From Ostreococcus lucimarinus (lineage: Eukaryota), in NCBI GenBank assembly GCA_000092065.1, contig CP000581.1: a DNA stretch of 64,000 nt; one strand, given 5' to 3'. The position numbers and the translations under genes were made by a program. This document shows, in pieces, positions 2,869 to 37,235 of this stretch; the stretch's first letter is position 1; each line of letters starts with the position of its first letter. The notes beneath the pieces are model-generated. The model searched no databases and was not told where the DNA came from. It worked only from the letters and a program-made list of their open reading frames with translations.

Positions 2869-5283
2869 TTACTGCTGCTCTACTTGGCGCCCTTCCGTCG
2901 TCGCGTTGACAAACTTTTTAAATACGACGTTCTCGTCGGCTTTAGTCGGGTTCTTCGAAGAATCCGACGGACTTTCTGCGGTGATTTCTTTTAAGATTTC
3001 ACTGGCTCGTTGCACGGCGCGGCTCGAAGCACCGTCTTGCGTGTTGTTTTGGAGCACCGTCTCGACAGCGCGCTCCGCCTCTTCGTCTGTCACCTTGTTC
3101 GAGGCGGCGACTATCTTTTCAACGATATCTTCCTGACTATCGACGTCTTTGCCCTTGCCCTTCTTCCACGCACGTGGTGCGATATTTATGGGTTCTTTCA
3201 GATTCTTGATGAGTTCATCTTTATTCTCCGTCTCTTCGACCACATTAGTCGCCGCTTGCCACACGGCCTCCGCTCCAGACTTTTTCGCCCCTCGTACCTC
3301 CTCCAACGTTTGCTCGATGATCGTGTCCGTCATTTCTAACCGTTCAGACGCAACCTGTAATCCATCGAGATCGGTGTTGACGTCTTCGGTCAGTTCTAGG
3401 ACGTCCGATGTTTCTTCGAGCGCATCGTCCGTTGCTCGTACTTTCTCAAGCGCCTCATCTGCGCGCTCGTGAACGTCGTCGGAGCTCTCATCAGCCTGGC
3501 TCGCTTCCCCTTCCTCTTCTATATCTCTCAACGTCTCGCGAACCTCGCGTAGGGTATCGCTTACATTTCTGTACGATTCTCTCGCTTTGGCGAATTTCTC
3601 CTTTGCCTCTCGCACGTCCTCTTCGTCGACATCTTTTCGAAACGGATTGAGCGAGTCGAATTCGCGCATCGCCGCTGAACGCGTTTCCTGACTTGAAGCG
3701 AGCGCGAGCGTGGATGTCACATCTTTCACCACGCTCTCGCTTAATTTCGACTCTTCGGAAAGTTGTGAAACAACTCGTTCTACGGCATCGATTCTTCTGA
3801 ATTTCGCCGCCGCGGTGAGAATCCTGTCGTAAACTTGCACCCTCGATCGTACGAATGTTTGAGCGGCGACGAGTCGTTGTATGATGACGACAACCTCAGC
3901 TTCTTCTTTCAAGGACTGCAGTGTGCTTCGTGTACATGCGATACCAATAAATACGCCAAATAGAATTAGCGCGTGCGCGCTGAGACGCACACCGCTCCCG
4001 AGCTGCTGCAGTAGTTTGAAATCATTCATACTTTTCTTCGAGCTCGACGACGGACACGTGCGCAGAAACATCATCCCAGGAAGAATGAATGTAAGTATCG
4101 AGCATGTCGTGCTACCGATGAGACCGAACACGTGTTGAATGTTTGGCACTGAAATGGACACGCGCAAGCAGCTGTAAAGCACGAGAACATCAAACACTAA
4201 TTCGGTGTGTCTTCCCGCCACGCGCGAGAGCGACAGCAAGAGCGAGGGCGATATTTCTCGCAAGGAAATGAAGAGAAGCGGCACGCCGGTGCATATAGCG
4301 CACCCGTACAAGAACCGTACCAACTGCGTGTAAATCCCAAACCATCCACTTTCCGCACCAAAGTTGCGCAAAACGTTACCGTTCACGCTCGACCCGAACG
4401 CCACGTATCCGCACGCGCCGGTGACGATGTAAAAGATCAACAAATGCACCATCGTCTCGTTCGCGATGCCGACGACGCGCGAGGTCGACATCACCGCCGT
4501 GCCCGAACTCTTCAACGCTGGAAACACCATCACGTGCGCCGCAAAATTAAATACCATGATCGGTAGCACCAGACCCAGCCCGCTCGCGTCCCACGTCTTC
4601 GACGCGCTCGATTTCCCGTCGCCGAGCGCCAACCGTCGCGCCGCGAGCGTCACCAAACACAATCCAAACAACCCCGTCGTCGCCAACCCGAACCCCACCA
4701 CTTTTTCGAGTCTTTTTTGACTCTTCACGAACGTCGCCAACGGCAAAAACACCCCAAACGTCACCCCCGCCATGACGCGTTCGCGATTCACCTCCACCCC
4801 AGCCGGCAGCACGCCGCTCGACGCCGCCGTGAAGAAATTATCCCCCACGATGTTTACGTACGCCACCACCACCCCGACCAACAGCGCGGCGATGCTATAC
4901 TTCGCGACGATCCTCCCTCGTCGTCCCAGCGTCGCGCTCGTCAAATCTTCGTACGACCACGCGCCGTGCGCGTTCGCGCAGTACAACATTTGCTCGAGCG
5001 ACAGCGCGCACGCCAGGCACGCCCCCGCGCTCGTCGCCGTCGTCAGCGCCAATCCGCACGCCGCGAAGCACGACGGCACCGCGAGCGCGCCGCTGCCGAG
5101 CATCGAGTTCAGGAGGCTCTTCGAGCTCGCGCGCGACGACGACGACGGCGCGAACGCGCGACGACGCGCCGCGCTCGAGCTCAGAATCTCATCTTGCGTC
5201 CGCCGCGGCGTCGAGCGCGCGCGCGCCGCGGCGTCGAGCGCGCTCGCGCTCGCGCGGGCGACCGCGCGCGCGGGGTCGCGCAT
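2869..5283 (-). CDS. Amino-acid transporter (Aa_trans/SLC38-AVT type) with a long acidic coiled-coil C-terminal tail
   Basis: The N-terminal SKSLLNSMLGSGALAVPSCFAACG matches the Aa_trans signature (N..n.ilGaGiLalP), followed by about 10 hydrophobic segments. About 330 aa of E/D/K-rich coiled coil follow the membrane domain. The stop lies only 15 bp from the TrmO stop (convergent). Confidence 0.7.
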   Translation of the reverse strand: MRDPARAVARASASALDAAARARSTPRRTQDEILSSSAARRRAFAPSSSSRASSKSLLNSMLGSGALAVPSCFAACGLALTTATSAGACLACALSLEQMLYCANAHGAWSYEDLTSATLGRRGRIVAKYSIAALLVGVVVAYVNIVGDNFFTAASSGVLPAGVEVNRERVMAGVTFGVFLPLATFVKSQKRLEKVVGFGLATTGLFGLCLVTLAARRLALGDGKSSASKTWDASGLGLVLPIMVFNFAAHVMVFPALKSSGTAVMSTSRVVGIANETMVHLLIFYIVTGACGYVAFGSSVNGNVLRNFGAESGWFGIYTQLVRFLYGCAICTGVPLLFISLREISPSLLLSLSRVAGRHTELVFDVLVLYSCLRVSISVPNIQHVFGLIGSTTCSILTFILPGMMFLRTCPSSSSKKSMNDFKLLQQLGSGVRLSAHALILFGVFIGIACTRSTLQSLKEEAEVVVIIQRLVAAQTFVRSRVQVYDRILTAAAKFRRIDAVERVVSQLSEESKLSESVVKDVTSTLALASSQETRSAAMREFDSLNPFRKDVDEEDVREAKEKFAKARESYRNVSDTLREVRETLRDIEEEGEASQADESSDDVHERADEALEKVRATDDALEETSDVLELTEDVNTDLDGLQVASERLEMTDTIIEQTLEEVRGAKKSGAEAVWQAATNVVEETENKDELIKNLKEPINIAPRAWKKGKGKDVDSQEDIVEKIVAASNKVTDEEAERAVETVLQNNTQDGASSRAVQRASEILKEITAESPSDSSKNPTKADENVVFKKFVNATTEGRQVEQQ

Positions 5284-14186: not shown

Positions 14187-15557
14187 ATGCTTTCGACGAC
14201 CATCACCACCCCGAGCGCTTTCGTGAAGCCGCAAGCGCCGCGAACGCGCGTCAAGGCGCGCGCCGACAGCACCATGGCCCCGCCCACGACGCGCGTGCCG
14301 CCGAGAAACCCCGAAGGTGCGCGACGGCGCGATCGATGCGCGCCGACGCGATGTCGTGGTTTATCCAGTGCGATGGGTGACGATGACGACGCGTGTGACG
14401 GCGTGCGATGCGTGAACGACGCGATGGGGATGAGAAAGGATGTGAAATGATATCGATCGCCGCGAAACGCGTCGACGCGGGCGAACGCGATGACTGACGA
14501 GTGTGGATGACGATTGATTGCTCCAGGCGCGCCGACGGTGGTGCCGCAAGATTTGCCGAGCCGACCGCGACGCAACCGCCGCTCGCCGACGGTGCGAAAG
14601 GCGTTCCGCGAGACGATTCTCACGCCGGATAACTTCATTTACCCGATTTTCGTGCACGAGGGCGATGAGAACATTCCCATCGGTTCTATGCCGGGACAAG
14701 ACCGCCTGAGCTTCAAGAATGGCATGATCAAGCAAGTGCGCGAGGCGCGCGCGGCCGGCGTGAACCAAGTGGTCGTCTTCCCGAAGACCCCGGATAACTT
14801 GAAGACGGCTTGCGGGAAGGAGGCGTTCAATCCGAACGGCTTAGCCCAACGCTCGATCTCGTTGTTGAAGGATACGTTCCCCGATTTGGAAGTGTACACC
14901 GACGTCGCGCTCGATCCGTACAACACTATGGGCCACGACGGCATGGTGCGCTCCGACGGCGTCGTCATGAACGACGAAACGGTGTACTATTTGTGCCAAC
15001 AAGCCGTGTCCCAAGCGCGCGCGGGTGCTGATGTTATTTCTCCGTCCGATATGATGGATGGTCGCGTCGGTGCCATTCGCCAAGCGCTCGACGACGAAGG
15101 TTTCACCAACGTCGCCATCATGAGTTACACCGCCAAGTACAACAGCGCGTACTACGGTCCGTTCCGTGATGCCTTGGCGTCGGCGCCGCGTCCGGGTAGT
15201 GAAGACTGGAAGATTCCGAAGGACAAGGCTGAGTACCAAATGGACCCGGCCAACTACCGTGAGTGCTTGCGCGAAGCTGCTCTCGATGAACAAGAGGGCG
15301 CGGACATCATGATGGTCAAGCCGGCGGGCGCCTACTTAGACATCATCCGCGCGCTTAGAGACAGCACCACGCTCCCAATTTCCGCGTACCAAGTGTCTGG
15401 CGAATACTCCATGTTGAAGGCTGCCGCCGCGGCGGGTTACCTTAACGAACGCGATGCGGTCTTGGAATCCTTGATCGCCATCAAGCGCGCCGGAGCCGAC
15501 TTGACGTTAACGTACTATGCCATCGATGCCGCCAAGTGGATCCAAGAAGGCAACTAA
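14187..15557 (+). CDS. HEMB: Delta-aminolevulinic acid dehydratase (porphobilinogen synthase), Mg-type, with a transit peptide encoded on a separate 5' exon: join(14187..14316,14527..15557)
   Basis: Exon 2 is unmistakable ALAD: PRRNRRSPTVRKAFRETILTPDNFIYPIFVHEGDE..., DVALDPYNTMGHDG in place of the Cys-rich Zn site (so plant/plastid Mg-type), and the active-site Lys region MVKPAGAYLDII. Exon 1 reads MLSTTITTPSAFVKPQAPRTRVKARADSTMAPPTTRVPPRNPE, which is Ser/Thr/Arg-rich and transit-peptide-like. Donor G|GTGCGC at 14317; acceptor TGATTGATTGCTCCAG| ending at 14526. The join is in frame and gives ...NPE-G-APTVVPQDLPSRPRRNR, as in plant ALADs. Confidence 0.8.
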
Positions 15558-15795
15558 GTTGAACGCGAGTAGGACATACATTTTTAATATCGATGATTAC
15601 GCAATGATTTACGAACGAGCGCCGACGAAGGAGGCAAAACAGGGCGAATGCGCATGAGGTCGGCGAAGCTTCTGACTTTTCACTACACCGCTGATGAAAT
15701 CTAACTCAAACCTCGAGACGCTCCAGCGCTAGACACCGCTCTCGACGATCTAGGGTCGATCATATTCGATCGAATTCTCCACTCCACGCGACCAC

Positions 15796-16549
15796 TTAGT
15801 AGAAGTAGCCGAGCACCTTGCCACCAACCTTCTTGCGACGGGCCTCCTCGTGGTCCATGATGCCCGACGACGTGGTGAGCACGATGACACCAAACAAACG
15901 AGAGGGCAAAAGTCGACCAACCCAGTCCTCAAGGTCGTGGTGGGACAAATCATAACGCGGGCTACGAGTTTAAAACCATTCATCGTCAGTCTCCGAGTCT
16001 TAATCGACGTTTAAAGAAGACGCGCTTCTCGACGAGCGTTCGCGCAGACCCTAAAACACACGCACCTGATGACGCCGCACTTGTTGATACGTCCGTTAAG
16101 CTCAACGACGATCTTTCCCGCTCTGTGATCATCAATGAACTCGAATTCGTTGATGTAGCCTATTCGTTGTAAACCATTCCGTCGTCAGTCTCCACATTCA
16201 TCCTGTGATGCGCGCGCCGCTTTCAGGATCGTTCGCGCGCGTCCCGCTCGCGTTCCCCTCTCTTCACACGTACCGTGCTTTTGCATCACTTGCAAGAACT
16301 TGATCACCACCTTGGAAACCGGGCGCACGAGCACCTGACGCTTCCCACGCTTTTCCGCGTTGTACATCGACTCTGCAGAGCGCGCGAACACGATCGATCG
16401 CGAGGTTAGTCACAGACCCTAAAACACCACAGCGCGAGGACGCGATTCGGCGCCGTCGCGACACGCGCGACGTCGCGACGCGTCATAACGCGCGTGCGAA
16501 CGATGATAGACGTACTGAGAGTGTCATTCAAGACGCTGATTCGGACCAT
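15796..16549 (-). CDS. RPS15A: 40S ribosomal protein S15a (uS8), 4 exons: complement(join(15796..15961,16066..16159,16274..16372,16516..16549))
   Basis: Not in the ORF track as one unit. The spliced translation is [130 protein letters not shown] (130 aa). It is colinear with human RPS15A (130 aa) at about 70% identity. Donors: A|GTACGT, G|GTACGT, AG|GTGCGT. Acceptors: TCTGCAG|, CGAATAG|, CTCGTAG|. Exon lengths 34+99+94+166 = 393 nt, and all phases are consistent. Confidence 0.9.
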
Positions 16550-16679
16550 GGCGCTTGTCTCTTGACCGCACGCGTCGTCTAAAGGCGGATGCGACTGGCC
16601 GCGCGAGGGCTTTCGACTTCGTGGTCCGTGTGGCAAGACCGACATTAGGGCTTTCAGCGCTTTCGAGGCCGTCGGGCGT

Positions 16680-16805
16680 CTGAAGGAGTCTGCTCGTGAT
16701 ACGGACGACGACGATGGTCATCTGAAGGAGTCTACTCGTGATACGGACGACGACGATGGTCATCTGAAGGAGTCTACTTGTAATACATACATACGATGAA
16801 GATCG
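16680..16805. repeat. 42-bp tandem repeat, about 2.7 copies, upstream of RPS15A
   Basis: tctgaaggagtctgctcgtgatacggacgacgacgatggtca is followed by a near-identical copy (g to a) and then a degenerate third copy. It lies about 130-250 bp 5' of the RPS15A ATG on the minus strand, immediately 3' of the cyclophilin gene. Confidence 0.75.
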
Positions 16806-17894
16806 TCATCTAAAGGATTCTAGGACGCCGGCGCGGACGATTTTTGCCTCGCCCGTGGGCTCGCCGTCGGAAGAGGCCAACTTGTTGATCGCCCAAGCGT
16901 GCTCCATGCCGTCGACGACTTCGCCAAAGATGACGTACGAGCCATCTAAATGCGGCGCTGGGGCCATGACGATACTAAAGTGCCCTGTGTTGGTGTTTGG
17001 TCCGGCGTTGGCGACGCTTAGCAAACCAGGCCGGTCGTGTTTGAGTCGCAAGCCGCCGGGATCGTCGTCGAACGCTTTTCCCGGATTCACAGCACTTCCC
17101 GAGGCGGTGTGCGACCCTGTCTGGTCAATGAATCGGTCGAGAATTCTATAAAACTTCGAACCGACCCATGTATACTCTTCCGAAGGTTCGCCCACGCACA
17201 TTCGTCGGAAATTTTCCGCCGCGAGCGGGCTCGTGTCGGCGTACAATACAAATTCGATGCGCTCCGCGTCAGCGCCGTCGATGGAGACGTCGAGGTACAC
17301 GCGATGATTCCCTTTGGCGTGGCGTCTTTTAGTCTTCGCTCTTTCTTCTGCGTTGACTTCTTCCTCCGCTTTTTCCGCTTCTTCCGATGAAAACAACGCC
17401 CCGCTCGTCCATCGAGAGTCACCGCCTCGTCGTTCCGCGGCAAACAGTGCCCGCGCCGCGTTCTTCGCGTCGTACTTCAACCAACACTCCCCGCGCTTTC
17501 TATCACCTCCGCACCCCCCTTCGTCGCCGCACCAGACCCATACGTTACATTTTCTCGCGCTCTCTTCGCACGCTCGGCAGCACGCCTCGGCGCTCGACGT
17601 CTTGAAATCGCTGCCCCAGCGCACGACGCCGCCGTCGAGCTCAACGCGAGCCCCGACGTCCGCACCGCACGTTCCGGTCATCGATGATCGTCGTGAATCG
17701 ATCGCGCGCACGACATCGACGTCATCGACGCCATTTACGTCGCTCACGAACGCGCGCGAGTGCGACGTGATTGGATTGTTCACGATGACGTAAAACGCGA
17801 GCGCAACGGCGGCGGCCACGGAGTAACGCACCGTACGCAGAAGCGCTCGAGCGTCGACATTTCGTCTGTACTGCCCGCCACGCGCGAGAGCCAT
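16806..17894 (-). CDS. Membrane-anchored cyclophilin-type peptidyl-prolyl isomerase with an N-terminal PAN/Apple-like Cys-rich domain
   Basis: N-terminal signal anchor (YSVAAAVALAFYVIVNN). PAN-like Cys pattern FKTSSAEACCRACEESARKCNVWVWCGD...GECWLKY. C-terminal cyclophilin domain VYLDVSIDGADAERIEFVLYADTSPLAAENFRRMC...FYRILDRFIDQTG...GHFSIVMAPAPHLDGSYVIFGEVVDGMEHAWAI. Confidence 0.75.
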   Translation of the reverse strand: MALARGGQYRRNVDARALLRTVRYSVAAAVALAFYVIVNNPITSHSRAFVSDVNGVDDVDVVRAIDSRRSSMTGTCGADVGARVELDGGVVRWGSDFKTSSAEACCRACEESARKCNVWVWCGDEGGCGGDRKRGECWLKYDAKNAARALFAAERRGGDSRWTSGALFSSEEAEKAEEEVNAEERAKTKRRHAKGNHRVYLDVSIDGADAERIEFVLYADTSPLAAENFRRMCVGEPSEEYTWVGSKFYRILDRFIDQTGSHTASGSAVNPGKAFDDDPGGLRLKHDRPGLLSVANAGPNTNTGHFSIVMAPAPHLDGSYVIFGEVVDGMEHAWAINKLASSDGEPTGEAKIVRAGVLESFR

Positions 17895-25610: not shown

Positions 25611-26984
25611 CTACAACATAGGAATATACGCAGGCAAAGCTTCAGTCCCGGAGTAATCGGGACTATAATCATCGTCTGATTTAGGCAAAGTTCGTTTATG
25701 CTCGTGAAGGAGCTTCATAATGCGCTCTTTAAGCTCATCGATTCCTCGACCTTCGTCGGCACTCGTCGCGGTCGCGTTTGGAATTTGCGCCATCGCGCGT
25801 TCAGCCTCCTTAACGTCCTCTTCGCTCCATAACTCTTGCGTATCCGGGTCTGTCTCACCTCCTAAAACCGGTACTAGTGCCGACTTGGAGAAGACGTCGA
25901 TCCACGGTCGACGCTCGGCGAATTGTTTGTAGAGCTCTTCTCTGAGCTGCAACTGGTCGTCGATGGACGTGCCCGATAGCCCGGTTAAATCGGTGACGAA
26001 AATCACGCACGTCGGCAAGTGCTCCAACGTCGCGATGGTGAGCATTTCAATTTTATTTCGATCGGCCTCCGATCGATTAATCAAGCCCGGGGTGTCCGTG
26101 ACCACGTGTCGCTCGTCGTCGACGAAAAAGTGCCCCATCTTGATGCCCTTCGTCGTGAACGGGTAGTTACACACTTCCGGCAATCCACTAGACAGCACGC
26201 GCACCAACGAGCTCTTCCCCACGTTCGGTGCACCGACGAGCGCGACTGTGGGCGTCTCGAGCTCCGCCACCGGAAGCTTCCGGAGCAACTTGGCGATGGA
26301 TTTCAAATCGTCCACGCACCTCGCGTACTTTCTGTAATACGCCTCCATCTCCGCGAACCCCTTCTCTCGCATCTCTTCCGCCTCTTTCAGCGCCGTCGTC
26401 TTCGTGACTTGCGACGCGTACCCTTTACCTATCCCAAGCATCCCCTTCCGCATCGAATCCACCGCCGCGAGCGTCGTTCTATACTTTTTATCGCTCAGCG
26501 TCAGCTCCAACAGCGCCCGCTCAAACGGGTGCAACCGCTCCGGCGGCGGAAACCCCTTCACGTACTCCTTCAACGGTTTACACACCCCCGTCGTCAGCGC
26601 GTCGAGTTGTTTCGCGCTCTTATTCCTCTCCCTCGCCGCATCCTTCAATCCCCGCGTCGGCGTCACCCGTCCCGCTCGTTTCACCGCGCTCGCGATCAAT
26701 TGCTCCGCGGGCGACACGTTCGGCAACCGCCCGAACGCTCCCGGCCGGTGCGCTCGCCTCGTCGTCGCCGCCACCGTTTCGTCCGTTCGCGCGTCCGCGT
26801 CTTCGTCCTCGCGTCCGCGCTCGCGCGGTTCGTCGCGCGCGTCCCTCGTCGACGTTCCCGCGTCGTCGCGCGCGTCGCCGCCGCCACCGCGCGCGCGCGT
26901 CGTCGTCGTCGTCGTCGCGCGTCGCGCTCGCGTCGTCCACGGTCGTCGCGACAGCGCGCCGGCGATCGCGCGCGCCGTCGCCAT
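25611..26984 (-). CDS. NOG1-family GTPase, short organelle-type (archaeal/plastid NOG1-like) with an N-terminal extension
   Basis: NOG1 N-domain followed by a G-domain: LVGAPNVGKSSLV (G1), NYPFTTKG (G2), DTPGLINR (G3), plus the NOG1-type EDRNKIEMLTIATLEHL. There is no long NOGCT tail; total 457 aa. The N-terminal 90 aa are R/T-rich and transit-like. It resembles plant plastid NOG1-like GTPases; that comparison is from recall, not an alignment. Confidence 0.65.
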   Translation of the reverse strand: MATARAIAGALSRRPWTTRARRATTTTTTRARGGGGDARDDAGTSTRDARDEPRERGREDEDADARTDETVAATTRRAHRPGAFGRLPNVSPAEQLIASAVKRAGRVTPTRGLKDAARERNKSAKQLDALTTGVCKPLKEYVKGFPPPERLHPFERALLELTLSDKKYRTTLAAVDSMRKGMLGIGKGYASQVTKTTALKEAEEMREKGFAEMEAYYRKYARCVDDLKSIAKLLRKLPVAELETPTVALVGAPNVGKSSLVRVLSSGLPEVCNYPFTTKGIKMGHFFVDDERHVVTDTPGLINRSEADRNKIEMLTIATLEHLPTCVIFVTDLTGLSGTSIDDQLQLREELYKQFAERRPWIDVFSKSALVPVLGGETDPDTQELWSEEDVKEAERAMAQIPNATATSADEGRGIDELKERIMKLLHEHKRTLPKSDDDYSPDYSGTEALPAYIPML

Positions 26985-27075: not shown

Positions 27076-27095
27076 CCTAAACCCTAAACCCTAGG
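27076..27095. promoter_or_regulatory. Two tandem telo-box / interstitial telomere-like repeats (CCTAAACCCTAAACCCTAGG)
   Basis: Seen directly. They lie in the 314-bp divergent promoter between the NOG1-like GTPase (start 26984, minus) and the PP2C (start 27299, plus). The AAACCCTAA telo-box is an established plant cis-element of translation and ribosome-biogenesis genes. Confidence 0.6.
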
Positions 27096-27298: not shown

Positions 27299-28273
27299 TT
27301 GGCGACGCGATCGAGCGAACGACGCGCGATGGCGACGCGAGTGCGCGCGAGCGACGCGGGAACGGCGCGCGCGATGCGGGTGAACGCTTGGAGATCGCGC
27401 GGACGCGGCGGTGGGGGGGTCGGGACGACGCGAGGAGGCGCGAGAAGGGCGAGGGGAGGGACGGCGGCGCGCGCGGCGGCGACGAGGTTGGAGGTTTCGA
27501 GCGCGGGGGCGATTTTAGTGCCGCATCCGGATAAGGCGGATAAGGGCGGCGAAGACGCGTGCTTCGTGTTGAAGCAAAGCGGTGCGTTCGGGGTGTTCGA
27601 CGGCGTCGGAGGATGGGCGGAGGAGGGGGTGGATCCGGCGGAGTATAGCGAAAAGTTTGCCGAGAAATCCGCGCAGAGCGTGTTGGCGGGACAACGCGAC
27701 CCGGTCGCGGTGATGAGGGACGCGCACGAGGCGACGCAGGTGATCGGTTCGTGCACGGCGTGCATCGCGGTGTTGAAAAATGGAAACGTGCTGGATATCG
27801 CGAACTTGGGCGACGCCGGGGCGTTGGTTTCGCGCGACGGCGGCGTGGTGTTTCACACAAAGTCGCAACAGCACGAGTTCAACTTGCCGTATCAGCTCGG
27901 CTGGACGAAGGTGTATCCCGAAGGCGATCGCCCGGACGCGGCGGATCGCGTCGAGGTAGAGATGAAACCGGGCGATGCCGTCGTTTTGGGGTCGGATGGT
28001 TTATGGGACAACGTGCCGTACGCTGAAGTCGCGGCGCTGTGCGCCGAGCACCAAGGCGACGCCGAAGAGTGCGCCGAGGCCATCGCGACGCTCGCGTTCG
28101 GTTACTCTTGTGATCCCGAGTACGACTCGCCTTTCACGCAAGAAGCGCGAAAAGCGGCGGAGGGGAGACCGGAATGGGCCGATAGAAGAAACTTGATTGG
28201 TGGGAAGATGGACGACATCGCCGTCGTGTGCATGTTCGTAGAAGCTTCGCGAGGTTTGAGCGGTGGGACTTAG
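27299..28273 (+). CDS. PP2C-family protein phosphatase (PTC7 / SpoIIE-like PPM)
   Basis: EDACFVLKQSGAFGVFDGVGGW (PPM motif DGxGG), ...LGSDGLWDNV and a C-terminal MDDIAVVCMFV (metal-binding Asp). N-terminal 75 aa are Arg/Gly-rich and look like a targeting sequence. Confidence 0.75.
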   Translation: MATRSSERRAMATRVRASDAGTARAMRVNAWRSRGRGGGGVGTTRGGARRARGGTAARAAATRLEVSSAGAILVPHPDKADKGGEDACFVLKQSGAFGVFDGVGGWAEEGVDPAEYSEKFAEKSAQSVLAGQRDPVAVMRDAHEATQVIGSCTACIAVLKNGNVLDIANLGDAGALVSRDGGVVFHTKSQQHEFNLPYQLGWTKVYPEGDRPDAADRVEVEMKPGDAVVLGSDGLWDNVPYAEVAALCAEHQGDAEECAEAIATLAFGYSCDPEYDSPFTQEARKAAEGRPEWADRRNLIGGKMDDIAVVCMFVEASRGLSGGT

Positions 28274-29432: not shown

Positions 29433-29591
29433 CGGCCAAGGCCTCGACGAGGATCTTATCGTTCGACGTGAGCTTGCTCGACGCCTTGATGACGGACGTC
29501 GTCGGCGTCGGCGTCGACATCGCGAGAAGAGCGTGGAGAAGTGCGGCGCGGCGCGACGCGACGGGCGACGCGGAGGAAGTCGACTCGTGGA

Positions 29592-29766
29592 ATATTATAT
29601 TGAAAAGCTTACTTGAGGAGGAGTTCGGCGCATTGCACGGCGTTTAAGGCGGCGCCCTTCTTGATTTGGTCACCACACACGAACAAATCCAAGCCCTTGT
29701 TGTTGGGCTGGGAGATGTCTTGACGGATGCGACCGACGTAGACGTCGTCGTTATCCGTGGCGTCGA
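29592..29766. repeat. Repeat A: a 175-bp, 100% identical duplicate of the ASADH 3' coding end plus its downstream 32 bp (original at 36001..36175)
   Basis: Compared base by base: atattatattgaaaagcttacttgaggaggagttcggcgcattgcacggcgtttaaggcggcgcccttcttgatttggtcacc...ccgtggcgtcgag is identical at both places. The minus-strand ORF 29609..29839 ends with the same 47 aa as ASADH ([51 protein letters not shown]). Confidence 0.9.
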
Positions 29767-29791
29767 GACACGCCGTAACGCGTCTGCGCGC

Positions 29792-30027
29792 GATCGTCTC
29801 TCTCGTCAGTCTCCCGCGTCGCGTCGTCCTCGCGCGCACGCACCGGCACCTCGCGACGACTCTCGCGTCGGTCGTCGACCGTCAACGCGCCGAGACGCGC
29901 GCGCGCGCCCACCGTCTCGCGCGAGGACGACGACGGTGAAGACGACGCATCGTCTCGCGACGCGTCGGCTCGCGACGCGTCGGCTCGCGACGAGCGCGCC
30001 TCCACGCGCGCGCGAGGGCGCGCGTCC
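29792..30027. repeat. Repeat B copy 1 (about 235 bp; second copy at 34715..34949, about 95% identity, same orientation)
   Basis: atcgtctctctcgtcagtctcccgcgtcgcgtcgtc...gaggacgacgacggtgaagacgacgcatcgtctcgcgacgc...gagggcgcgcgtcc is present on both flanks of the peroxidase-PAN gene, with a few substitutions and one 15-nt unit variation. Confidence 0.85.
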
Positions 30028-30271
30028 ACGAGCTTGTCGCGCCGGGACGCCCGGCGCGCATGCCCCCAGCGCTTGTGCGTGAGACGCCCGCGCGCGTCAT
30101 CAATCAGTTCGCAGCATGGGGAATCCCCATGCCCGAAGAGCGACGCGACGCGGGCGACGAACACTGACGCGCGCGACCAAGACTCGTGCCCGGGTGGGCA
30201 CCTGCCGTTTTTTGTTTTTTTGTTTTTTGTCTATCTACTGTAAAGAGAATGTTAAATATGTAACATCGTGT

Positions 30272-30419: not shown

Positions 30420-33400
30420 ATGGACGAATCGACGCCGTTGATCGGGCGGCGACGGGAAGGGAGACGCGGCGCGCGCGGCGCGCTCGTCGTCGGCGCGCTC
30501 GCGTGCGCGTGCGGAACGCTCGTGGCGTTGGCGAATTGCCCGCACCTGGTGTCGACACTCTCACGGGCGATTGGTGTTGGAGACGCGGACGGCGCGGGTG
30601 CGCGCGGGGTGAACGCGGTCTTCGCGCGCCTCGGTGCGGTGTGGGGACGCGATGATTCTGATTACGTGTACACGTCGCTCGAACGTGATTTACTGCGCCC
30701 TCACGAAGACGACGATGAAATCGAAGACGAAATCGACGAAATTGACGCCGACGCGAAGGACGGAAAGGTTGCCGAACACACTTCGACAGACCAACTGCAC
30801 GGTCGAGGAAACGAAGGCTTGGCAAAGGTCGCAACTCTGGGCGAGCCCGCACTTCCGACCGATTTGCCGCCGTCACGCGCGTTGGCGACGCTCGACGAGA
30901 TTGAAGCTGTTTTACTGGGCAACTGGCGAAAGTGGACGCGCTTGGACGTCGTGCGCGGACGCGCTGAACTGGAAACCGTGCGAGATAAACTCGCTGCTCT
31001 CGTTGGTGATGACGTGAATGAAACAACTGTCGCCAACTCTGCCGCAGAGGTGACAAACGAGACGTCGTTTATTTCTTGCAAGGCTGAACAACTCGTACGT
31101 GAAATCCTGAGTGAGTACGGCGGCGCACCCAAACTTCTACTCCCAAAATTGTTGCGCTTCATTTTCCACGACGCGGTTGACGAGAACAACTTATTAATCC
31201 AAAAGGATGGAGGCTATGTACCGTTTAGGGCACCAACTGGCTCGATATACGGCGGTTTGGACCTTTGCCTTTACTCTCCCCTGACGCATGGAACGTCTGG
31301 GAAACCAGACCCTGGGCATAACAGAAATGTTCGAATGAACCGCGAGGTTATCAAATTGTGTGACGCTGTCTGTAAAGATTTGAATACTGGTTTATGTGAA
31401 CTGCAGAATGATAAACCTAAACGGTGCTATACGGACATGTTAGCGTTTAGTTCCATAATCGTTCTGGAGAAGCACTCAAAGCTTAGTGCCCCATCTTCAA
31501 TGGTTTGGGGAAGGCGAGGCGGTGAGTGTGGCAACAGCATCGTTACACCATTTACCAAAAGCAGGGAGAAGCTTGAATCCTACGTTGGAAAACCTGCGCT
31601 GAACTTTGCGCCGGCGCTTCATGCCATGGACGATCCCGGCACCTTCTCGAGAGTCTTTGCAAAACTTGGATTTACGCCTTCAGAGCACGTCGCGTTGATG
31701 GGAGCTCACAGTGTGGGTAAAATTTCACCATGCGCGAGTGGACTCAACGGTATCGAAAAAGGTAACTTTTGCCCGATGAAGAAGCGATATGATCCACCCA
31801 TCGAGATAGGGAATGAATCCCCACAGTGCCAGCCACAAAAACACGTTCAGGGCAACTGTTGGAAACCCTCTGGACCGAAGTCTTATGCCACTCCGTATTA
31901 CTACTTCTTTCGTGGTGGGAGAACAGGGTACAAGACCGGCTTCGCCGACGGTGGGGTTTGGGATCACACGCCTGATTCGCTTGACAATCAGTATTACAAG
32001 TTGATGTACGACGAAGACTATGGGGGACGCACTAAGTGTTGCGGGAAAAAGAAGAATGGCGGTTGCCATCGGGGTGGGCAACCAGTCGACAGGGAAACTG
32101 GGAGAAAACTCCCTTTTTCCTCATTATGCAACATAAATTGGTGCCGCTCAGACCGCAAAGGTAGGACACACATGAAGTCTACAAAAGCTTGGGTCGAACC
32201 CAGACATTCGCTCTTAAAATTGCCCTACTTTCGCGGAACCATCGTGAAAATGATAAGACTTGCCGGTGATTGGGCTCTTCTCGGGAACAATGAAACACAA
32301 TCGATTCTGAAGCGTTATGCAGAAGATGAAAACGAATTCCATTCCAATTTTGCGGTGGCCTGGGATAAGGTGTTACGGAAGGGGTACTTCCTTGACGAGC
32401 TGAAAACGTGTTCGAACGTGTCAGGACCGAAAGATGCGCAACTTCTTACTCGCCTAAGGGAGTACCAAGCTGCACTGTCGGCCAAACGCGCCAAACGCGT
32501 GGCCAAAAATGCACGACGCGCCGGGGTCGAAGCCGAAAGTTCTGACCAAACATCGAATCTTGGAGATCAAAGTTCACACAACAAACTTGGACAACAAAGT
32601 TCAGCACAAGAAGATGCAACCACAGATAAAACACTGCAAGTTGCAACGGCAACCATGGATGATGCGAAGTACGACGACGGGCTTGACACTGCAACGAACG
32701 CATCGGATCTCGAGCAAGTTGTACCAAAGTCAATTTCAACGACCATTCAACATTGTGATAAGTTCAATGTGCTTGGTCTCGTCAAACACATCCGGTCAGA
32801 GATACAGAAGCTCCCTCGAGATACTACACCTCTTGCGATAGGGCAAGAGCTCACTGCGGCGAGAGACGTAGTCATGGGACAAAACGTACAGATGAGCGAG
32901 CCGACGCCTGCGCCTGCGCCCACACCTACGCCGACGCCTGCGCCTGCGCCTGCGCCTGCGCCTGCGCCTGCGCCTGCGCCCACACCCGCACCTTCGCCAG
33001 GAGTGGAGCAAAGCGACGAGTCCAGCAACGAAGATGGAGGTGACGCGAAAATCTACAGCTTGGAGCACGCAGGCGCACGGTGCGTAGGGCTGCCTCGTGC
33101 CAAGCGAGTGAAGCGAACGCGCAGTGTGGAGGAGTGTGCTGAGTTGGTGAAAAAACGTGGGCACCTCCACTTTGCCTTCCTCCGCAACACCGTGTGCTTG
33201 GAGCAGCCAAAACCGTGGAGCAAATGTCGTCGCATTCGCAAGGGCCGATTTGATCTTTACAAGATCAAAGCAGAGCCTGCGCCTCCTGCGCCTCCGCCTG
33301 CGCCTCCTGCGCCTCCTACGCCGTCTACGTGGTCGTCTACGTGGTCGTCTACACCTTCCACTTACAGTTACAGTGCAGCGACATGCAAGCGCGATCGTGG

Positions 33401-34619
33401 CAAGTTCGTTGATGGGAAATGCTGGCATATGGCTACGACTGACACATCTTGTGAAGAGACATGTGCTGACAAAAATCTTCAATATGATGAGGGCACGCAC
33501 CTGGGCTCGCCGAAGAACCCTGAGACCTGGGACAAGTGTGTGGCTGTCGCCCAGATGTTTAAAAAGCAGGCAAGGACGAATGGGCCAGCGATCGGCGGGG
33601 GTGGTGGCTGTGGCTGTTCAGTCTTTAAGATTCCTGTTTACGGTACGAATGATGCAGTTCGCCTGAGTGGCGCCAATACTACGAGCCCCGAGTGTTGGAA
33701 GATGGGCCCAATCCAAGCACGTCTCTGCGCATGCAAACCAGCATCAGCTGTTGGCGCAAGTTGCACCTCTTCCTCAAGCTGCTTGAACGCTTATTGTAAG
33801 TCAGGCGTTTGCACGAGTTTTTTGGCCCAGAACAGTGCATGCACCGAGCACGCTTCGTGCGTGACAGGCTATTGCTCACCAACGGAACGTAAATGCACGA
33901 CGGTGTCATGGAAGTCACAAAAAGGCGCGTATGCCAAAAAGTACTATAACGCTGGTAAAAAGAAATTCAGGGTTATGCCAAAACAGAAGAACGTACCTGA
34001 TTGGGAGGCGATGACGACGTTTCCAAAGGGTTTTTGTATCGGAAATGACAGCGCCGGTTGCTTGATAGCACGCGGTGTCAACCGCCAGAAGACGATTCAA
34101 AAAGCCAAACAGCGTTGTGCGTCGTCTGAGGAATGCGTGGCTGTTTGGTGTTGCGCAACAGGATGTCCAGCCACGACGTGTCATGCAGTCAAGACTAGAA
34201 CTCCAAATTACGCGGCGAACGATTGCCCGCTCTTTCCTGGAAGCTTCCGCGAGACCAAATACCCGGCTACGTTCTATACTAAAGACACGGAGGGCGCTCA
34301 AGTACACGAGTCACCGCGAAACATCGTGACGGAAGTGGACATTGCTGCGAGTGCCGATGAAGGGGAAAACATGTACAGTCGGATAAAAGGAGGGAAAAGA
34401 AGGAAGGTAGACGCAAAGCAATGCCCCTTACAAAAATTGAAAGCGCACACCTTGGACGAGTGCGCTGAGATGGTGAGGGAACACGGAAGCCTTCACTTTG
34501 CCTTCGGACATAAAAGGTGCTTTTTGGCCAAACAACCGTGGAGCGAATGCGAGACGAGCCATGGCAAGTATGATCTTTTTCAAATCGACGAACACGCACG
34601 CGACGACGATGAAGATTGA
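30420..34619 (+). CDS. Giant secreted/membrane-anchored plant-type (class II/III-like) heme peroxidase fused to Pro-Ala/Pro-Thr mucin-like linkers, Cys-rich modules and two PAN/Apple-like domains (1399 aa)
   Basis: N-terminal hydrophobic anchor (ALVVGALACACGTLVALANC). Peroxidase motifs: LLRFIFHDAV (distal His, R..FHD), ALMGAHSVG (proximal His), DSLDNQYYKLM (FDNxYY). (PA)n and PxxP linkers are encoded by (CCTGCG)n at 32904..32990 and again at 33275..33350. Two approximately 60-aa repeats, ...SVEECAELVKKRGHLHFAFLRNTVCLEQ... and ...TLDECAEMVREHGSLHFAFGHKRCFLAKQ..., have PAN-like Cys spacing. Additional Cys-rich (EGF/GCC-like) segments are present. Confidence 0.7.
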   Translation: MDESTPLIGRRREGRRGARGALVVGALACACGTLVALANCPHLVSTLSRAIGVGDADGAGARGVNAVFARLGAVWGRDDSDYVYTSLERDLLRPHEDDDEIEDEIDEIDADAKDGKVAEHTSTDQLHGRGNEGLAKVATLGEPALPTDLPPSRALATLDEIEAVLLGNWRKWTRLDVVRGRAELETVRDKLAALVGDDVNETTVANSAAEVTNETSFISCKAEQLVREILSEYGGAPKLLLPKLLRFIFHDAVDENNLLIQKDGGYVPFRAPTGSIYGGLDLCLYSPLTHGTSGKPDPGHNRNVRMNREVIKLCDAVCKDLNTGLCELQNDKPKRCYTDMLAFSSIIVLEKHSKLSAPSSMVWGRRGGECGNSIVTPFTKSREKLESYVGKPALNFAPALHAMDDPGTFSRVFAKLGFTPSEHVALMGAHSVGKISPCASGLNGIEKGNFCPMKKRYDPPIEIGNESPQCQPQKHVQGNCWKPSGPKSYATPYYYFFRGGRTGYKTGFADGGVWDHTPDSLDNQYYKLMYDEDYGGRTKCCGKKKNGGCHRGGQPVDRETGRKLPFSSLCNINWCRSDRKGRTHMKSTKAWVEPRHSLLKLPYFRGTIVKMIRLAGDWALLGNNETQSILKRYAEDENEFHSNFAVAWDKVLRKGYFLDELKTCSNVSGPKDAQLLTRLREYQAALSAKRAKRVAKNARRAGVEAESSDQTSNLGDQSSHNKLGQQSSAQEDATTDKTLQVATATMDDAKYDDGLDTATNASDLEQVVPKSISTTIQHCDKFNVLGLVKHIRSEIQKLPRDTTPLAIGQELTAARDVVMGQNVQMSEPTPAPAPTPTPTPAPAPAPAPAPAPAPTPAPSPGVEQSDESSNEDGGDAKIYSLEHAGARCVGLPRAKRVKRTRSVEECAELVKKRGHLHFAFLRNTVCLEQPKPWSKCRRIRKGRFDLYKIKAEPAPPAPPPAPPAPPTPSTWSSTWSSTPSTYSYSAATCKRDRGKFVDGKCWHMATTDTSCEETCADKNLQYDEGTHLGSPKNPETWDKCVAVAQMFKKQARTNGPAIGGGGGCGCSVFKIPVYGTNDAVRLSGANTTSPECWKMGPIQARLCACKPASAVGASCTSSSSCLNAYCKSGVCTSFLAQNSACTEHASCVTGYCSPTERKCTTVSWKSQKGAYAKKYYNAGKKKFRVMPKQKNVPDWEAMTTFPKGFCIGNDSAGCLIARGVNRQKTIQKAKQRCASSEECVAVWCCATGCPATTCHAVKTRTPNYAANDCPLFPGSFRETKYPATFYTKDTEGAQVHESPRNIVTEVDIAASADEGENMYSRIKGGKRRKVDAKQCPLQKLKAHTLDECAEMVREHGSLHFAFGHKRCFLAKQPWSECETSHGKYDLFQIDEHARDDDED

Positions 34620-34714: not shown

Positions 34715-34949
34715 ATCGTCTCTCTCGTCAGTCTCCCGCGTCGCGTCGTCATCGCGCGCACGCACCGGCACCTCGCGACGACTCTCGCGTCGGTCGTCGA
34801 ACGTCAACACGCCGAGACACGTGCGCGCGCCCACCGTCTCGCGCGAGGACGACGACGGTGAAGACGACGCATCGTCTCGCGACGCATCGTCTCGCGACGC
34901 GTCGGCTCGCGACGAGCGCTCCTCCACGCGCGCGCGAGGGCGCGCGTCC
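34715..34949. repeat. Repeat B copy 2
   Basis: See 29792..30027. Confidence 0.85.
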
Positions 34950-35254
34950 GCGCGTGGCGCGACCGGCGCGCGGGCGCGACCGACGGCGCGAGGCGCTGGC
35001 TATGTGTACGCACTCATAGTAGTGGTCACGATGACGTATCGTGCGCGTTCTTCACCCATCTATTTGCATTCCTCGACATCGCACTCGTAGTAGTGGTCAC
35101 GACGGCGGGAAAACCACCGTTCCTCCGCGGCTCACTGTTTGCGCATAGAGAAAAATTCCGGCGTGGTCGCCCGCGTCAGGAGGGACTCTTGGAGGTGTGT
35201 GACTCGTCGCTACATCTTAAACCTCGTGCGGAGATAGATCCCTTGCGGAGACGA

Positions 35255-35836: not shown

Positions 35837-36017
35837 TTCCAATCATCATCCACTCGCGCCTCGGCCGACGCCATCGGCCGCGCGACGCCTCTGCGTTCGT
35901 CAACGACGACACAGCACGCACGACAATTACAATAAGTTTAATATGAATGACACGCACTTACGCCGACGAGGGGAGACGATCGACGCGCGCGCGCGCGCGA
36001 ATATTATATTGAAAAGC

Positions 36018-37235
36018 TTACTTGAGGAGGAGTTCGGCGCATTGCACGGCGTTTAAGGCGGCGCCCTTCTTGATTTGGTCACCACACACGAACAAATCCA
36101 AGCCCTTGTTGTTGGGCTGGGAGATGTCTTGACGGATGCGACCGACGTAGACGTCGTCGTTATCCGTGGCGTCGAGCGGGGTGGGGAAACGGTTGGCGGC
36201 GCGATCGTCGATGATGGAAACGCCCGCGGCGGAGGACAAGATTTCTTTCGCCTTGACTTCATCGAGCGGGTTCTTCAACGTCAAGTTGATGGATTCCGCG
36301 TGCGCACGCATCACCGGCACCCGAATGCACGTGGCGGTGATGTTGACGTCTTTGAAGTCCCAAATCTTTCTCGTCTCCTTGACCATCTTCATCTCTTCCT
36401 CGTTGTAACCATTCTCCGTCATCGGGGCGTTGTGAGAGAACAAGTTGAACGCATACTGCCACTGGAAGATTTCCATCGTCTTGCACTCACCGTCGTTCAC
36501 CACTTCTCTCGTTTGTTGCTCCAACTCCTTCATCGCGAGCGCGCCGGCGCCGCTCGCCGCTTGGTACGTCGACACGACGATACGTTCGACGCCCACGGCG
36601 CGGTGAATCGGCGTCACCGCCATGAGCGCGATGATGGTGGAGCAGTTCGGGTTCGCGATGATCCCAGCCTTACCACCGAGCTTCAAGTGCGCCATGGCTT
36701 CCGGATTCACCTCCGGAATCACCAACGGCACCCCATCCGTCATGCGAAACGCGCTCGAGTTATCCACCACGAAGCACCCCTTCTCCACCGCCACCGGTCC
36801 AAACTTTTTCGAGATCGACCCCCCCGCGGAGAACAACGCGATATCTTGCCCATCGAACGAGCTCTCCGTCAGTTCCTCCACGACGTACGTCTCGCCGTCG
36901 AAATCCACCTTCGACCCCGCGCTTCGCGCGCTCGCCAGCATCTTCATCTCGCTATACGGAAAGTCCCTCTCCTTGAGCACGCGCAGGAACTCCTGTCCGA
37001 CCGCGCCCGTGATTCCCGCGATGACCACCTTCGGTCCGTCCGCCGTTCGCTTCGCCTCGACGCGCACCGCCCCTCGCGTCCCGCGCGCGCCCCGCGCGAT
37101 CCTTTTCGTCGTCGCTTTCAGCGCGTTCGCGTTCGCGATTCGCGCTCTCGCGCTCGTCGTCGCGCGCATCGTCGTCGTCCGCTCGTCCCTCGTCCCTCGT
37201 CGGCGCTCGTCGCGGCGCGTCGGCGTGTGTCGCAC
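36018..37235 (-). CDS. ASD: Aspartate-semialdehyde dehydrogenase with an N-terminal transit-like extension
   Basis: VVIAGITGAVGQEF (Rossmann fold), GIIANPNCSTIIALMAVTPIH (active-site Cys), ...YQAASGAG... and the C-terminal [19 protein letters not shown]. The first 70 aa are R/T/A-rich. Confidence 0.85.
   Translation of the reverse strand: MRHTPTRRDERRRGTRDERTTTMRATTSARARIANANALKATTKRIARGARGTRGAVRVEAKRTADGPKVVIAGITGAVGQEFLRVLKERDFPYSEMKMLASARSAGSKVDFDGETYVVEELTESSFDGQDIALFSAGGSISKKFGPVAVEKGCFVVDNSSAFRMTDGVPLVIPEVNPEAMAHLKLGGKAGIIANPNCSTIIALMAVTPIHRAVGVERIVVSTYQAASGAGALAMKELEQQTREVVNDGECKTMEIFQWQYAFNLFSHNAPMTENGYNEEEMKMVKETRKIWDFKDVNITATCIRVPVMRAHAESINLTLKNPLDEVKAKEILSSAAGVSIIDDRAANRFPTPLDATDNDDVYVGRIRQDISQPNNKGLDLFVCGDQIKKGAALNAVQCAELLLK

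Follow-up and report, generated by a model that had tools for sequence, protein, structure and literature searches.

A four-exon gene for cytosolic ribosomal protein uS8 (RPS15a) in Ostreococcus, with telomere-like motifs in its introns

Positions 15796-16549 on the minus strand of the window, by which we mean the whole 64-kb stretch of Ostreococcus DNA analyzed here, contain what we take, with a probability of about 97%, to be a single-copy nuclear gene for the cytosolic small-subunit ribosomal protein uS8 (RPS15a, hereafter S15a; S22 in yeast). The coding sequence runs from an ATG at 16549-16547, preceded by GCGCC, to a TAA at 15798-15796 and is divided among four exons of 34, 99, 94, and 166 nt, which join in frame to give 393 nt encoding 130 amino acids. 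The coding part of exon 1 (16516-16549, 34 nt) comprises codons 1 to 11 and the first base of codon 12; it reads ATG GTC CGA ... CTC A (in full, ATGGTCCGAATCAGCGTCTTGAATGACACTCTCA) and is followed directly by GTACGT, the beginning of intron 1 (16373-16515, 143 nt, GTACGT...CAG, phase 1). Exon 2 (16274-16372, 99 nt) precedes intron 2 (16160-16273, 114 nt, GTACGT...TAG, phase 1), exon 3 (16066-16159, 94 nt) precedes intron 3 (15962-16065, 104 nt, GTGCGT...TAG, phase 2), and the coding part of exon 4 (15796-15961, 166 nt) includes the TAA stop. All of these features lie on the minus strand, which an earlier sequence-only reading of the locus had left unstated. The three introns have the hallmarks of spliceosomal U2-type GT-AG introns, namely a GT donor, an AG acceptor, and a CTRAY branch-site motif, sought 20 to 40 nt upstream of the acceptor: in intron 1, a branch-site-like CTAAC (16409-16405) precedes the 3′ end by 33 nt, and in introns 2 and 3 the corresponding sequence is CTGAC (16188-16184 and 15989-15985), at 25 and 24 nt, respectively. 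In the scheme that we propose, the gene would be transcribed, its three spliceosomal GT-AG introns would be removed, and the 130-residue protein would serve as a structural component of the 40S subunit.

Transcript contigs prove the junctions and confirm that the introns are precisely removed from mature RNA; the RNA origin of these contigs we infer from their lack of introns rather than from run metadata. A look-up with the exact protein gave six short contigs that hold the coding sequence as one uninterrupted 393-nt stretch. Four contigs from four different sequencing runs (L005-L008) are 100% identical to the window exons and skip exactly 16515-16373, 16273-16160, and 16065-15962. The coding sequence spliced at the coordinates of the sequence-only reading is an exact substring of L005, L006, L007, and L008, and when extended into the UTRs, by 16 nt on the 5′ side and 107 nt on the 3′ side, it is still an exact substring of three of the four. 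Every 25-mer of all three introns was looked for in L005-L008, and none was present. Two contigs from a related Ostreococcus (L003 and L004, 85-97% identical) have junctions identical to those of the window. The sequence-only reading had claimed four exons with a first exon of 34 nt, intron lengths of 143, 114, and 104 nt with the donors and acceptors given above, a full-length 130-residue uS8 product, and a eukaryotic, spliceosomal locus, and it had proposed alignment to transcripts and full-length alignment of the product as checks. These claims are borne out: the splice model is the single solution obtained, contigs identical to the window show exactly the claimed junctions, including that of exon 1 in L005-L008, the GT-AG introns are precisely absent from the transcript contigs, and the product matches uS8 over residues 1-130 as well as the Pfam family.

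The same contigs extend the gene beyond its coding sequence. Transcribed sequence upstream of the start codon (16550-16722, minus strand) includes at least 16 nt of 5′ UTR common to three contigs (to 16565), and L007 reaches 16722. The 3′ UTR (15660-15795, minus strand) ends at 15689 in L006 and L008 and at 15660 in L005, and L007 continues 3′ of S15a into the convergent ALAD gene. The 5′ parts of the Logan contigs L006 (1-616) and L008 (1-396) are chimeric joins with unrelated transcripts and do not map to the window; they consist of a further GC-rich coding sequence in L006 and of one that is AT-rich in L008. We used the S15a portion alone of these two contigs, and their chimeric 5′ ends leave the junction evidence unaffected; they do call for caution when UTRs are defined from such contigs.

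The encoded protein is predicted to be a cytosolic 40S protein. Residues 7-130 match positions 3-126 of the 126-position Pfam profile Ribosomal_S8 (PF00410) at 83.5 bits (E = 1.6e-23), relative to a curated cut-off of 24 bits. In a phmmer search of the PDB, residues 1-130 align without gaps to residues 1-130 of cytosolic uS8 chains, with E values from 6.6e-69 to 1e-57; the aligned chains include those of wheat (4v3p_SH, 6.6e-69), Arabidopsis-type ribosomes (8auv_e and 9h3g_AE), human S15a, and yeast S22, and the best matches are plant sequences. Like the product described here, the cytosolic uS8 proteins of solved structures are 130 residues long, align end to end without gaps, and belong to the Ribosomal_S8 fold family; they differ from it by ordinary sequence divergence only, for example in the VGVKEIESWTA segment of the wheat protein. 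From what is known of the family, the product would be expected to be incorporated into the 40S subunit and to bind 18S rRNA.

It is very improbable that the product is instead an organellar S8, whether the plant type-II S15a of mitoribosomes or a bacterial-type S8 of plastids or mitochondria. The mitoribosome of plants does contain a recruited S15a paralog (S15a-5), the corresponding chain (6xyw_Bg) is among the PDB matches, and some homologs are named "30S ribosomal protein S8, chloroplastic" in the database. However, in the phmmer search the E values are 1.7e-37 for the S15a-5 chain and about 1e-11 for bacterial S8, as compared to 1e-68 to 1e-57 for the cytosolic chains, which outscore both by at least 30 orders of magnitude. 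Moreover, the alignment begins at Met1 of the product, leaving no room for an N-terminal extension or a transit peptide, and the source annotation places the protein in the cytosolic 80S ribosome.

Somewhat less probable again is that the gene is real but follows another exon-intron model, with different junctions, an additional coding exon, or another start codon. Models built from sequence alone can misplace short exons, and junctions 2 and 3 carry an ambiguity of 1 to 2 nt in BLAST alignments, which is resolved by the GT-AG rule. Against such a model, a depth-first search through every combination of GT/GC..AG introns that reproduces the protein returned exactly one solution, the four-exon model, and the coding sequence spliced in this way is the one found intact in the four transcript contigs. 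In addition, the product is colinear over residues 1-130 with uS8 chains of 130 residues, and therefore no residues are missing or extra. A pseudogene or a chance assembly of open reading frames is the least probable explanation of all, and nothing was found in its favor: the frame is uninterrupted, different Ostreococcus species have a 100% identical protein and introns that differ by about 25-50%, transcript assemblies from many samples contain the gene in abundance, and the synteny is conserved.

The four-exon S15a gene also bears on the ORFs listed at the locus. The sequence-only reading had stated that the ORF track missed the gene and showed only unrelated fragments there; the first part stands insofar as the gene is fragmented in the track, but the fragments are not unrelated to it, since exons 1 and 2 and most of exon 4 are represented. 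In particular, the 79- and 68-residue ORFs were wrongly set aside, as they hold exons 1 and 2 in frame and then read into introns. The former (16406-16645, minus strand) contains exon 1 in frame and runs on into intron 1, and the latter (16185-16391, minus strand) contains all of exon 2. A 50-residue ORF (15796-15948, minus strand) covers most of exon 4, and for exon 3 alone, no ORF in the right frame is listed. A bacterial-style ORF track thus fragments the spliced genes of this window, in which first exons as short as 34 nt occur.

The S15a gene is already annotated in public Ostreococcus genomes and is no discovery. The identical 130-residue sequence is on record (P0121) under XP_001415819.1/ABO94111.1, which we take to be O. 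lucimarinus CCE9901, and under CEF96635.1/OUS42737.1, presumably O. tauri. It carries the name [quoted passage not shown] and the protein database search also gave a cluster representative that is 99% identical and a Micromonas pusilla match at 93%. Because an identical protein is already annotated, the finding is correct but known. As a housekeeping ribosomal protein gene, S15a matters little in itself; the case is of use as a validated positive control for the reconstruction of exons from sequence alone, and the gene establishes the window as nuclear DNA of a green picoalga.

Comparison to orthologs places the window close to, but outside of, O. tauri. The O. tauri gene encodes the identical 130-residue protein, has the same three intron positions, and lies between the same neighbors, whereas its length is 817 nt and its introns measure 131, 125, and 168 nt, as opposed to 754 nt and 143, 114, and 104 nt in the window. 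At the DNA level, the window is only 76-80% identical to two O. tauri assemblies and therefore represents a sister species rather than O. tauri itself, most probably O. lucimarinus or a strain very close to it. The gene for a PAN-domain cyclophilin (16806-17894, minus strand) lies upstream of S15a, and that for ALAD/HemB (14514-15557, plus strand) lies downstream in convergent orientation. The convergent S15a/ALAD pair is kept in O. tauri, Bathycoccus, and both Micromonas species (L001/L002, L009, L013, and L014). The upstream PAN-cyclophilin gene is common to Ostreococcus and Bathycoccus, and in Bathycoccus an additional gene with a Ribosomal_L23 domain, probably of mitochondrial type, is inserted between it and S15a. 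The interval that separates the S15a start from the stop codon of the cyclophilin gene in the window holds a 42-nt tandem repeat (16679-16786, 2.6 copies, 95% matches), of which contig L005 has exactly one unit fewer, reflecting either a copy-number polymorphism or an assembly collapse.

The positions at which introns interrupt the S15a coding sequence suggest that they differ in age. Introns are found after positions 34, 133, and 227 in the window and in O. tauri; 36 and 133 in Bathycoccus; 36, 133, 227, 294, and 379 in M. commoda; 133, 227, 294, and 372 in Cymbomonas; 133, 203, 294, and 372 in Myrmecia bisecta; and 68 and 126 in Chlamydomonas eustigma. The M. pusilla gene (L013) gave no splice solution with canonical introns, and tblastn HSPs were used to position its first intron. 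From this distribution, the short first exon of 34 or 36 nt, present also in O. tauri, Bathycoccus, and M. commoda, is a feature of the Mamiellales, and positions 133 and 227 are older than that of the first intron. The first intron lies at 34 (phase 1) in the window and O. tauri versus 36 (phase 0) in Bathycoccus (L009) and M. commoda (L014), an offset for which intron sliding is one possible explanation and separate gains at almost identical sites another.

The contents of the introns provide the only possibly new biology at this locus, which is the presence of telomere-like motifs in ribosomal protein introns across the Mamiellales; we regard this as a lead and not as a finding. A telomere-like motif, TTTTAGGGTCT, is present in S15a introns 1 and 3 and is kept in O. 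tauri despite divergence of the rest of these introns. The two introns have an exact 15-mer in common, which includes the telomere-type unit TTTTAGGG. One copy of the 13-mer GTTTTAGGGTCTG is located directly upstream of the branch site of intron 1 (16413-16425, minus strand), at the same place in O. tauri amid diverged flanks, and the other copy forms bases 9-21 of intron 3 (16045-16057, minus strand). When the largely diverged introns of the two species are aligned, O. tauri intron 1 retains GTTTTAGGGTCT at the same place, and both versions of intron 3 begin with the same 21 nt, GTGCGTGTGTTTTAGGGTCTG. The motif extends beyond Ostreococcus: TTAGGGT(C/T) occurs in an S15a intron of all five Mamiellales orthologs examined, with sites at 3126 and 3495 of L002 (O. 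tauri), 1620 of L014 (M. commoda), 1605 of L013 (M. pusilla), and 2095 of L009 (Bathycoccus). In the two Micromonas species, intron 1 holds TTAGGGTCT / TTTAGGGTTT, the M. commoda intron reading ATTAGGGTCT and that of M. pusilla TTTAGGGTTT; in Bathycoccus, the motif is found antisense in intron 2, as ATTAGGGTCC. On either strand and under uniform base composition, TTAGGGT(C/T) would be expected by chance about 0.02-0.05 times per gene, a figure that is indicative only, as the motif was chosen post hoc. The telomere-like motif is absent from S15a of Myrmecia bisecta and Chlamydomonas eustigma, and the one antisense TTAGGGTTA in intron 3 of the Cymbomonas gene represents a frequency compatible with chance. 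The TTAGGG hexamer occurs only eight times in the 64 kb; three of these are at the S15a locus, and one belongs to the canonical repeat at 27076-27093 described below. Besides the intronic copies, a TTAGGG hexamer (ACATTAGGGCTTTC) is found at 16645-16650 on the plus strand, antisense to S15a and about 96 nt before its start codon.

Other similarities among the introns were considered as well. A 23-nt tract, GGAGACTGACGA(C)(G/T)GAATGGTTT, which includes the branch site, is common to the 3′-terminal parts of introns 2 and 3 (16170-16193 and 15971-15994, minus strand). We rejected it as a conserved element: O. tauri keeps the CTGACG branch site alone, and the resemblance of the two intron ends is thus lineage specific. 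An origin from introners or other repeat elements, introners being recognized by many near-identical copies in the introns of unrelated genes, was likewise rejected, as the tracts common to the S15a introns are merely 13-23 nt long and neither the 13-mer GTTTTAGGGTCTG nor the 22-mer GGAGACTGACGANGAATGGTTT has further copies in the 64-kb window. The idea of a snoRNA or other RNA hosted in the introns was dropped after an Rfam scan of 15400-17000 gave one 14-bit chance match, located outside of the gene, relative to a gathering score of 42.

The intronic motif resembles an element described in land plants, in which the telo-box AAACCCTAA marks ribosomal protein and translation genes (PMC3212954, PMC2576244, PMC12616469). 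Telo-box enrichment has been described for land plants (PMC3212954, PMC2576244), the TRB binding proteins originate in streptophytes (PMC12616469), and the telo-box regulon is treated as a land-plant or streptophyte feature in the literature searched. The S15a motif is like the land-plant telo-box in its core, the telomere-repeat unit ACCCTAA/TTAGGGT, in its location, within the 5′ part of ribosomal protein genes or close to it, and in being kept while the flanks diverge. In the window and O. tauri, the S15a introns have the form AGACCCTAAAA, which agrees with the telo-box AAACCCTA(A/G) at eight of nine positions, and the canonical sequence is present in intron 1 of M. pusilla S15a (AAAACCCTAAA), in intron 2 of M. 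commoda S14 (AAACCCTAAAA), and at 27076-27093 of the window. Unlike the land-plant element, one of the S15a copies, that in intron 3, lies about 500 nt from the start of the gene, and the hosts of the motif are chlorophytes, a group in which those papers report no TRB proteins and no enrichment of the telo-box. No paper describing a telo-box or AAACCCTA in Ostreococcus, Micromonas, or the Mamiellales was found in the literature searched.

Related motifs are found at two further genes, and such motifs have been seen in two ribosomal protein genes (S15a in five species and S14 in two) and in one promoter of the NOG1 family. In RPS14 (uS11), CCCTAAA occurs in the orthologous intron, located after ...NDTFV, of both Micromonas species, although these introns are 65 and 116 nt long and differ in sequence. 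It takes the form AAGCCCTAAAG in M. pusilla (L013, about 925-940, within a gene at 329-1200 on the minus strand) and AAACCCTAAAA in M. commoda (intron 2, L020, position 1788). A search with the Micromonas RPS14 query gave Micromonas and Mantoniella, P0266 comprising transcript contigs only, and no Ostreococcus RPS14 entry was identifiable among the best 120 matches and ten inspected clusters; the Ostreococcus locus was not reached because RPS14 is too conserved. Inspection by eye of the six-frame translations of ORF-poor gaps in the window made no other ribosomal protein gene evident. The NOG1-family promoter is in the window itself: a canonical (TTTAGGG)2.5 at 27076-27093 on the minus strand, TAGGGTTTAGGGTTTAGG, lies some 100 nt before the ATG at 26984 of a gene for a NOG1-family ribosome-biogenesis GTPase (25611-26984, minus strand). 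This interstitial telomere repeat falls within a divergent promoter that the GTPase gene shares with an ORF at 27299-28273 on the plus strand. In O. tauri, TTTAGGGTTTAGGG is found between the ALAD and Elf1 genes (L002, 5464-5477).

We tentatively raise the possibility, which we consider rather doubtful at present, that intronic TTAGGGT(C/T) motifs act as functional transcriptional elements of the telo-box type that mark ribosomal protein and ribosome-biogenesis genes in the Mamiellales. If this were true, a regulon linking the telomere motif to the translation apparatus would predate the chlorophyte-streptophyte split and would operate without the TRB family of streptophytes. Should the motif prove to be general, it would bear on the age of the plant telo-box regulon.

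Several other observations concern the databases and the remainder of the window. The RPS14 search brought up eukaryotic RPS14 sequences deposited as Clostridioides difficile, Salmonella Typhi, and Lactiplantibacillus (P0135, P0329, and P0335), and these bacterially named entries evidently represent contamination of bacterial assemblies by host or other eukaryotic DNA. Within the window, two nested direct repeats flank a 1,399-residue ORF with a peroxidase domain (30420-34619). The copies of the outer repeat (29590-29767 and 35999-36176) are 178 nt long, 100% identical, and 6,409 nt apart, and those of the inner repeat (29793-30030 and 34715-34952) are 238 nt long, 96% identical, and 4,922 nt apart, an arrangement suggestive of segmental duplication or insertion. 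An aspartate-semialdehyde dehydrogenase gene (36018-37235, minus strand) shares its 3′ end with the outer repeat.
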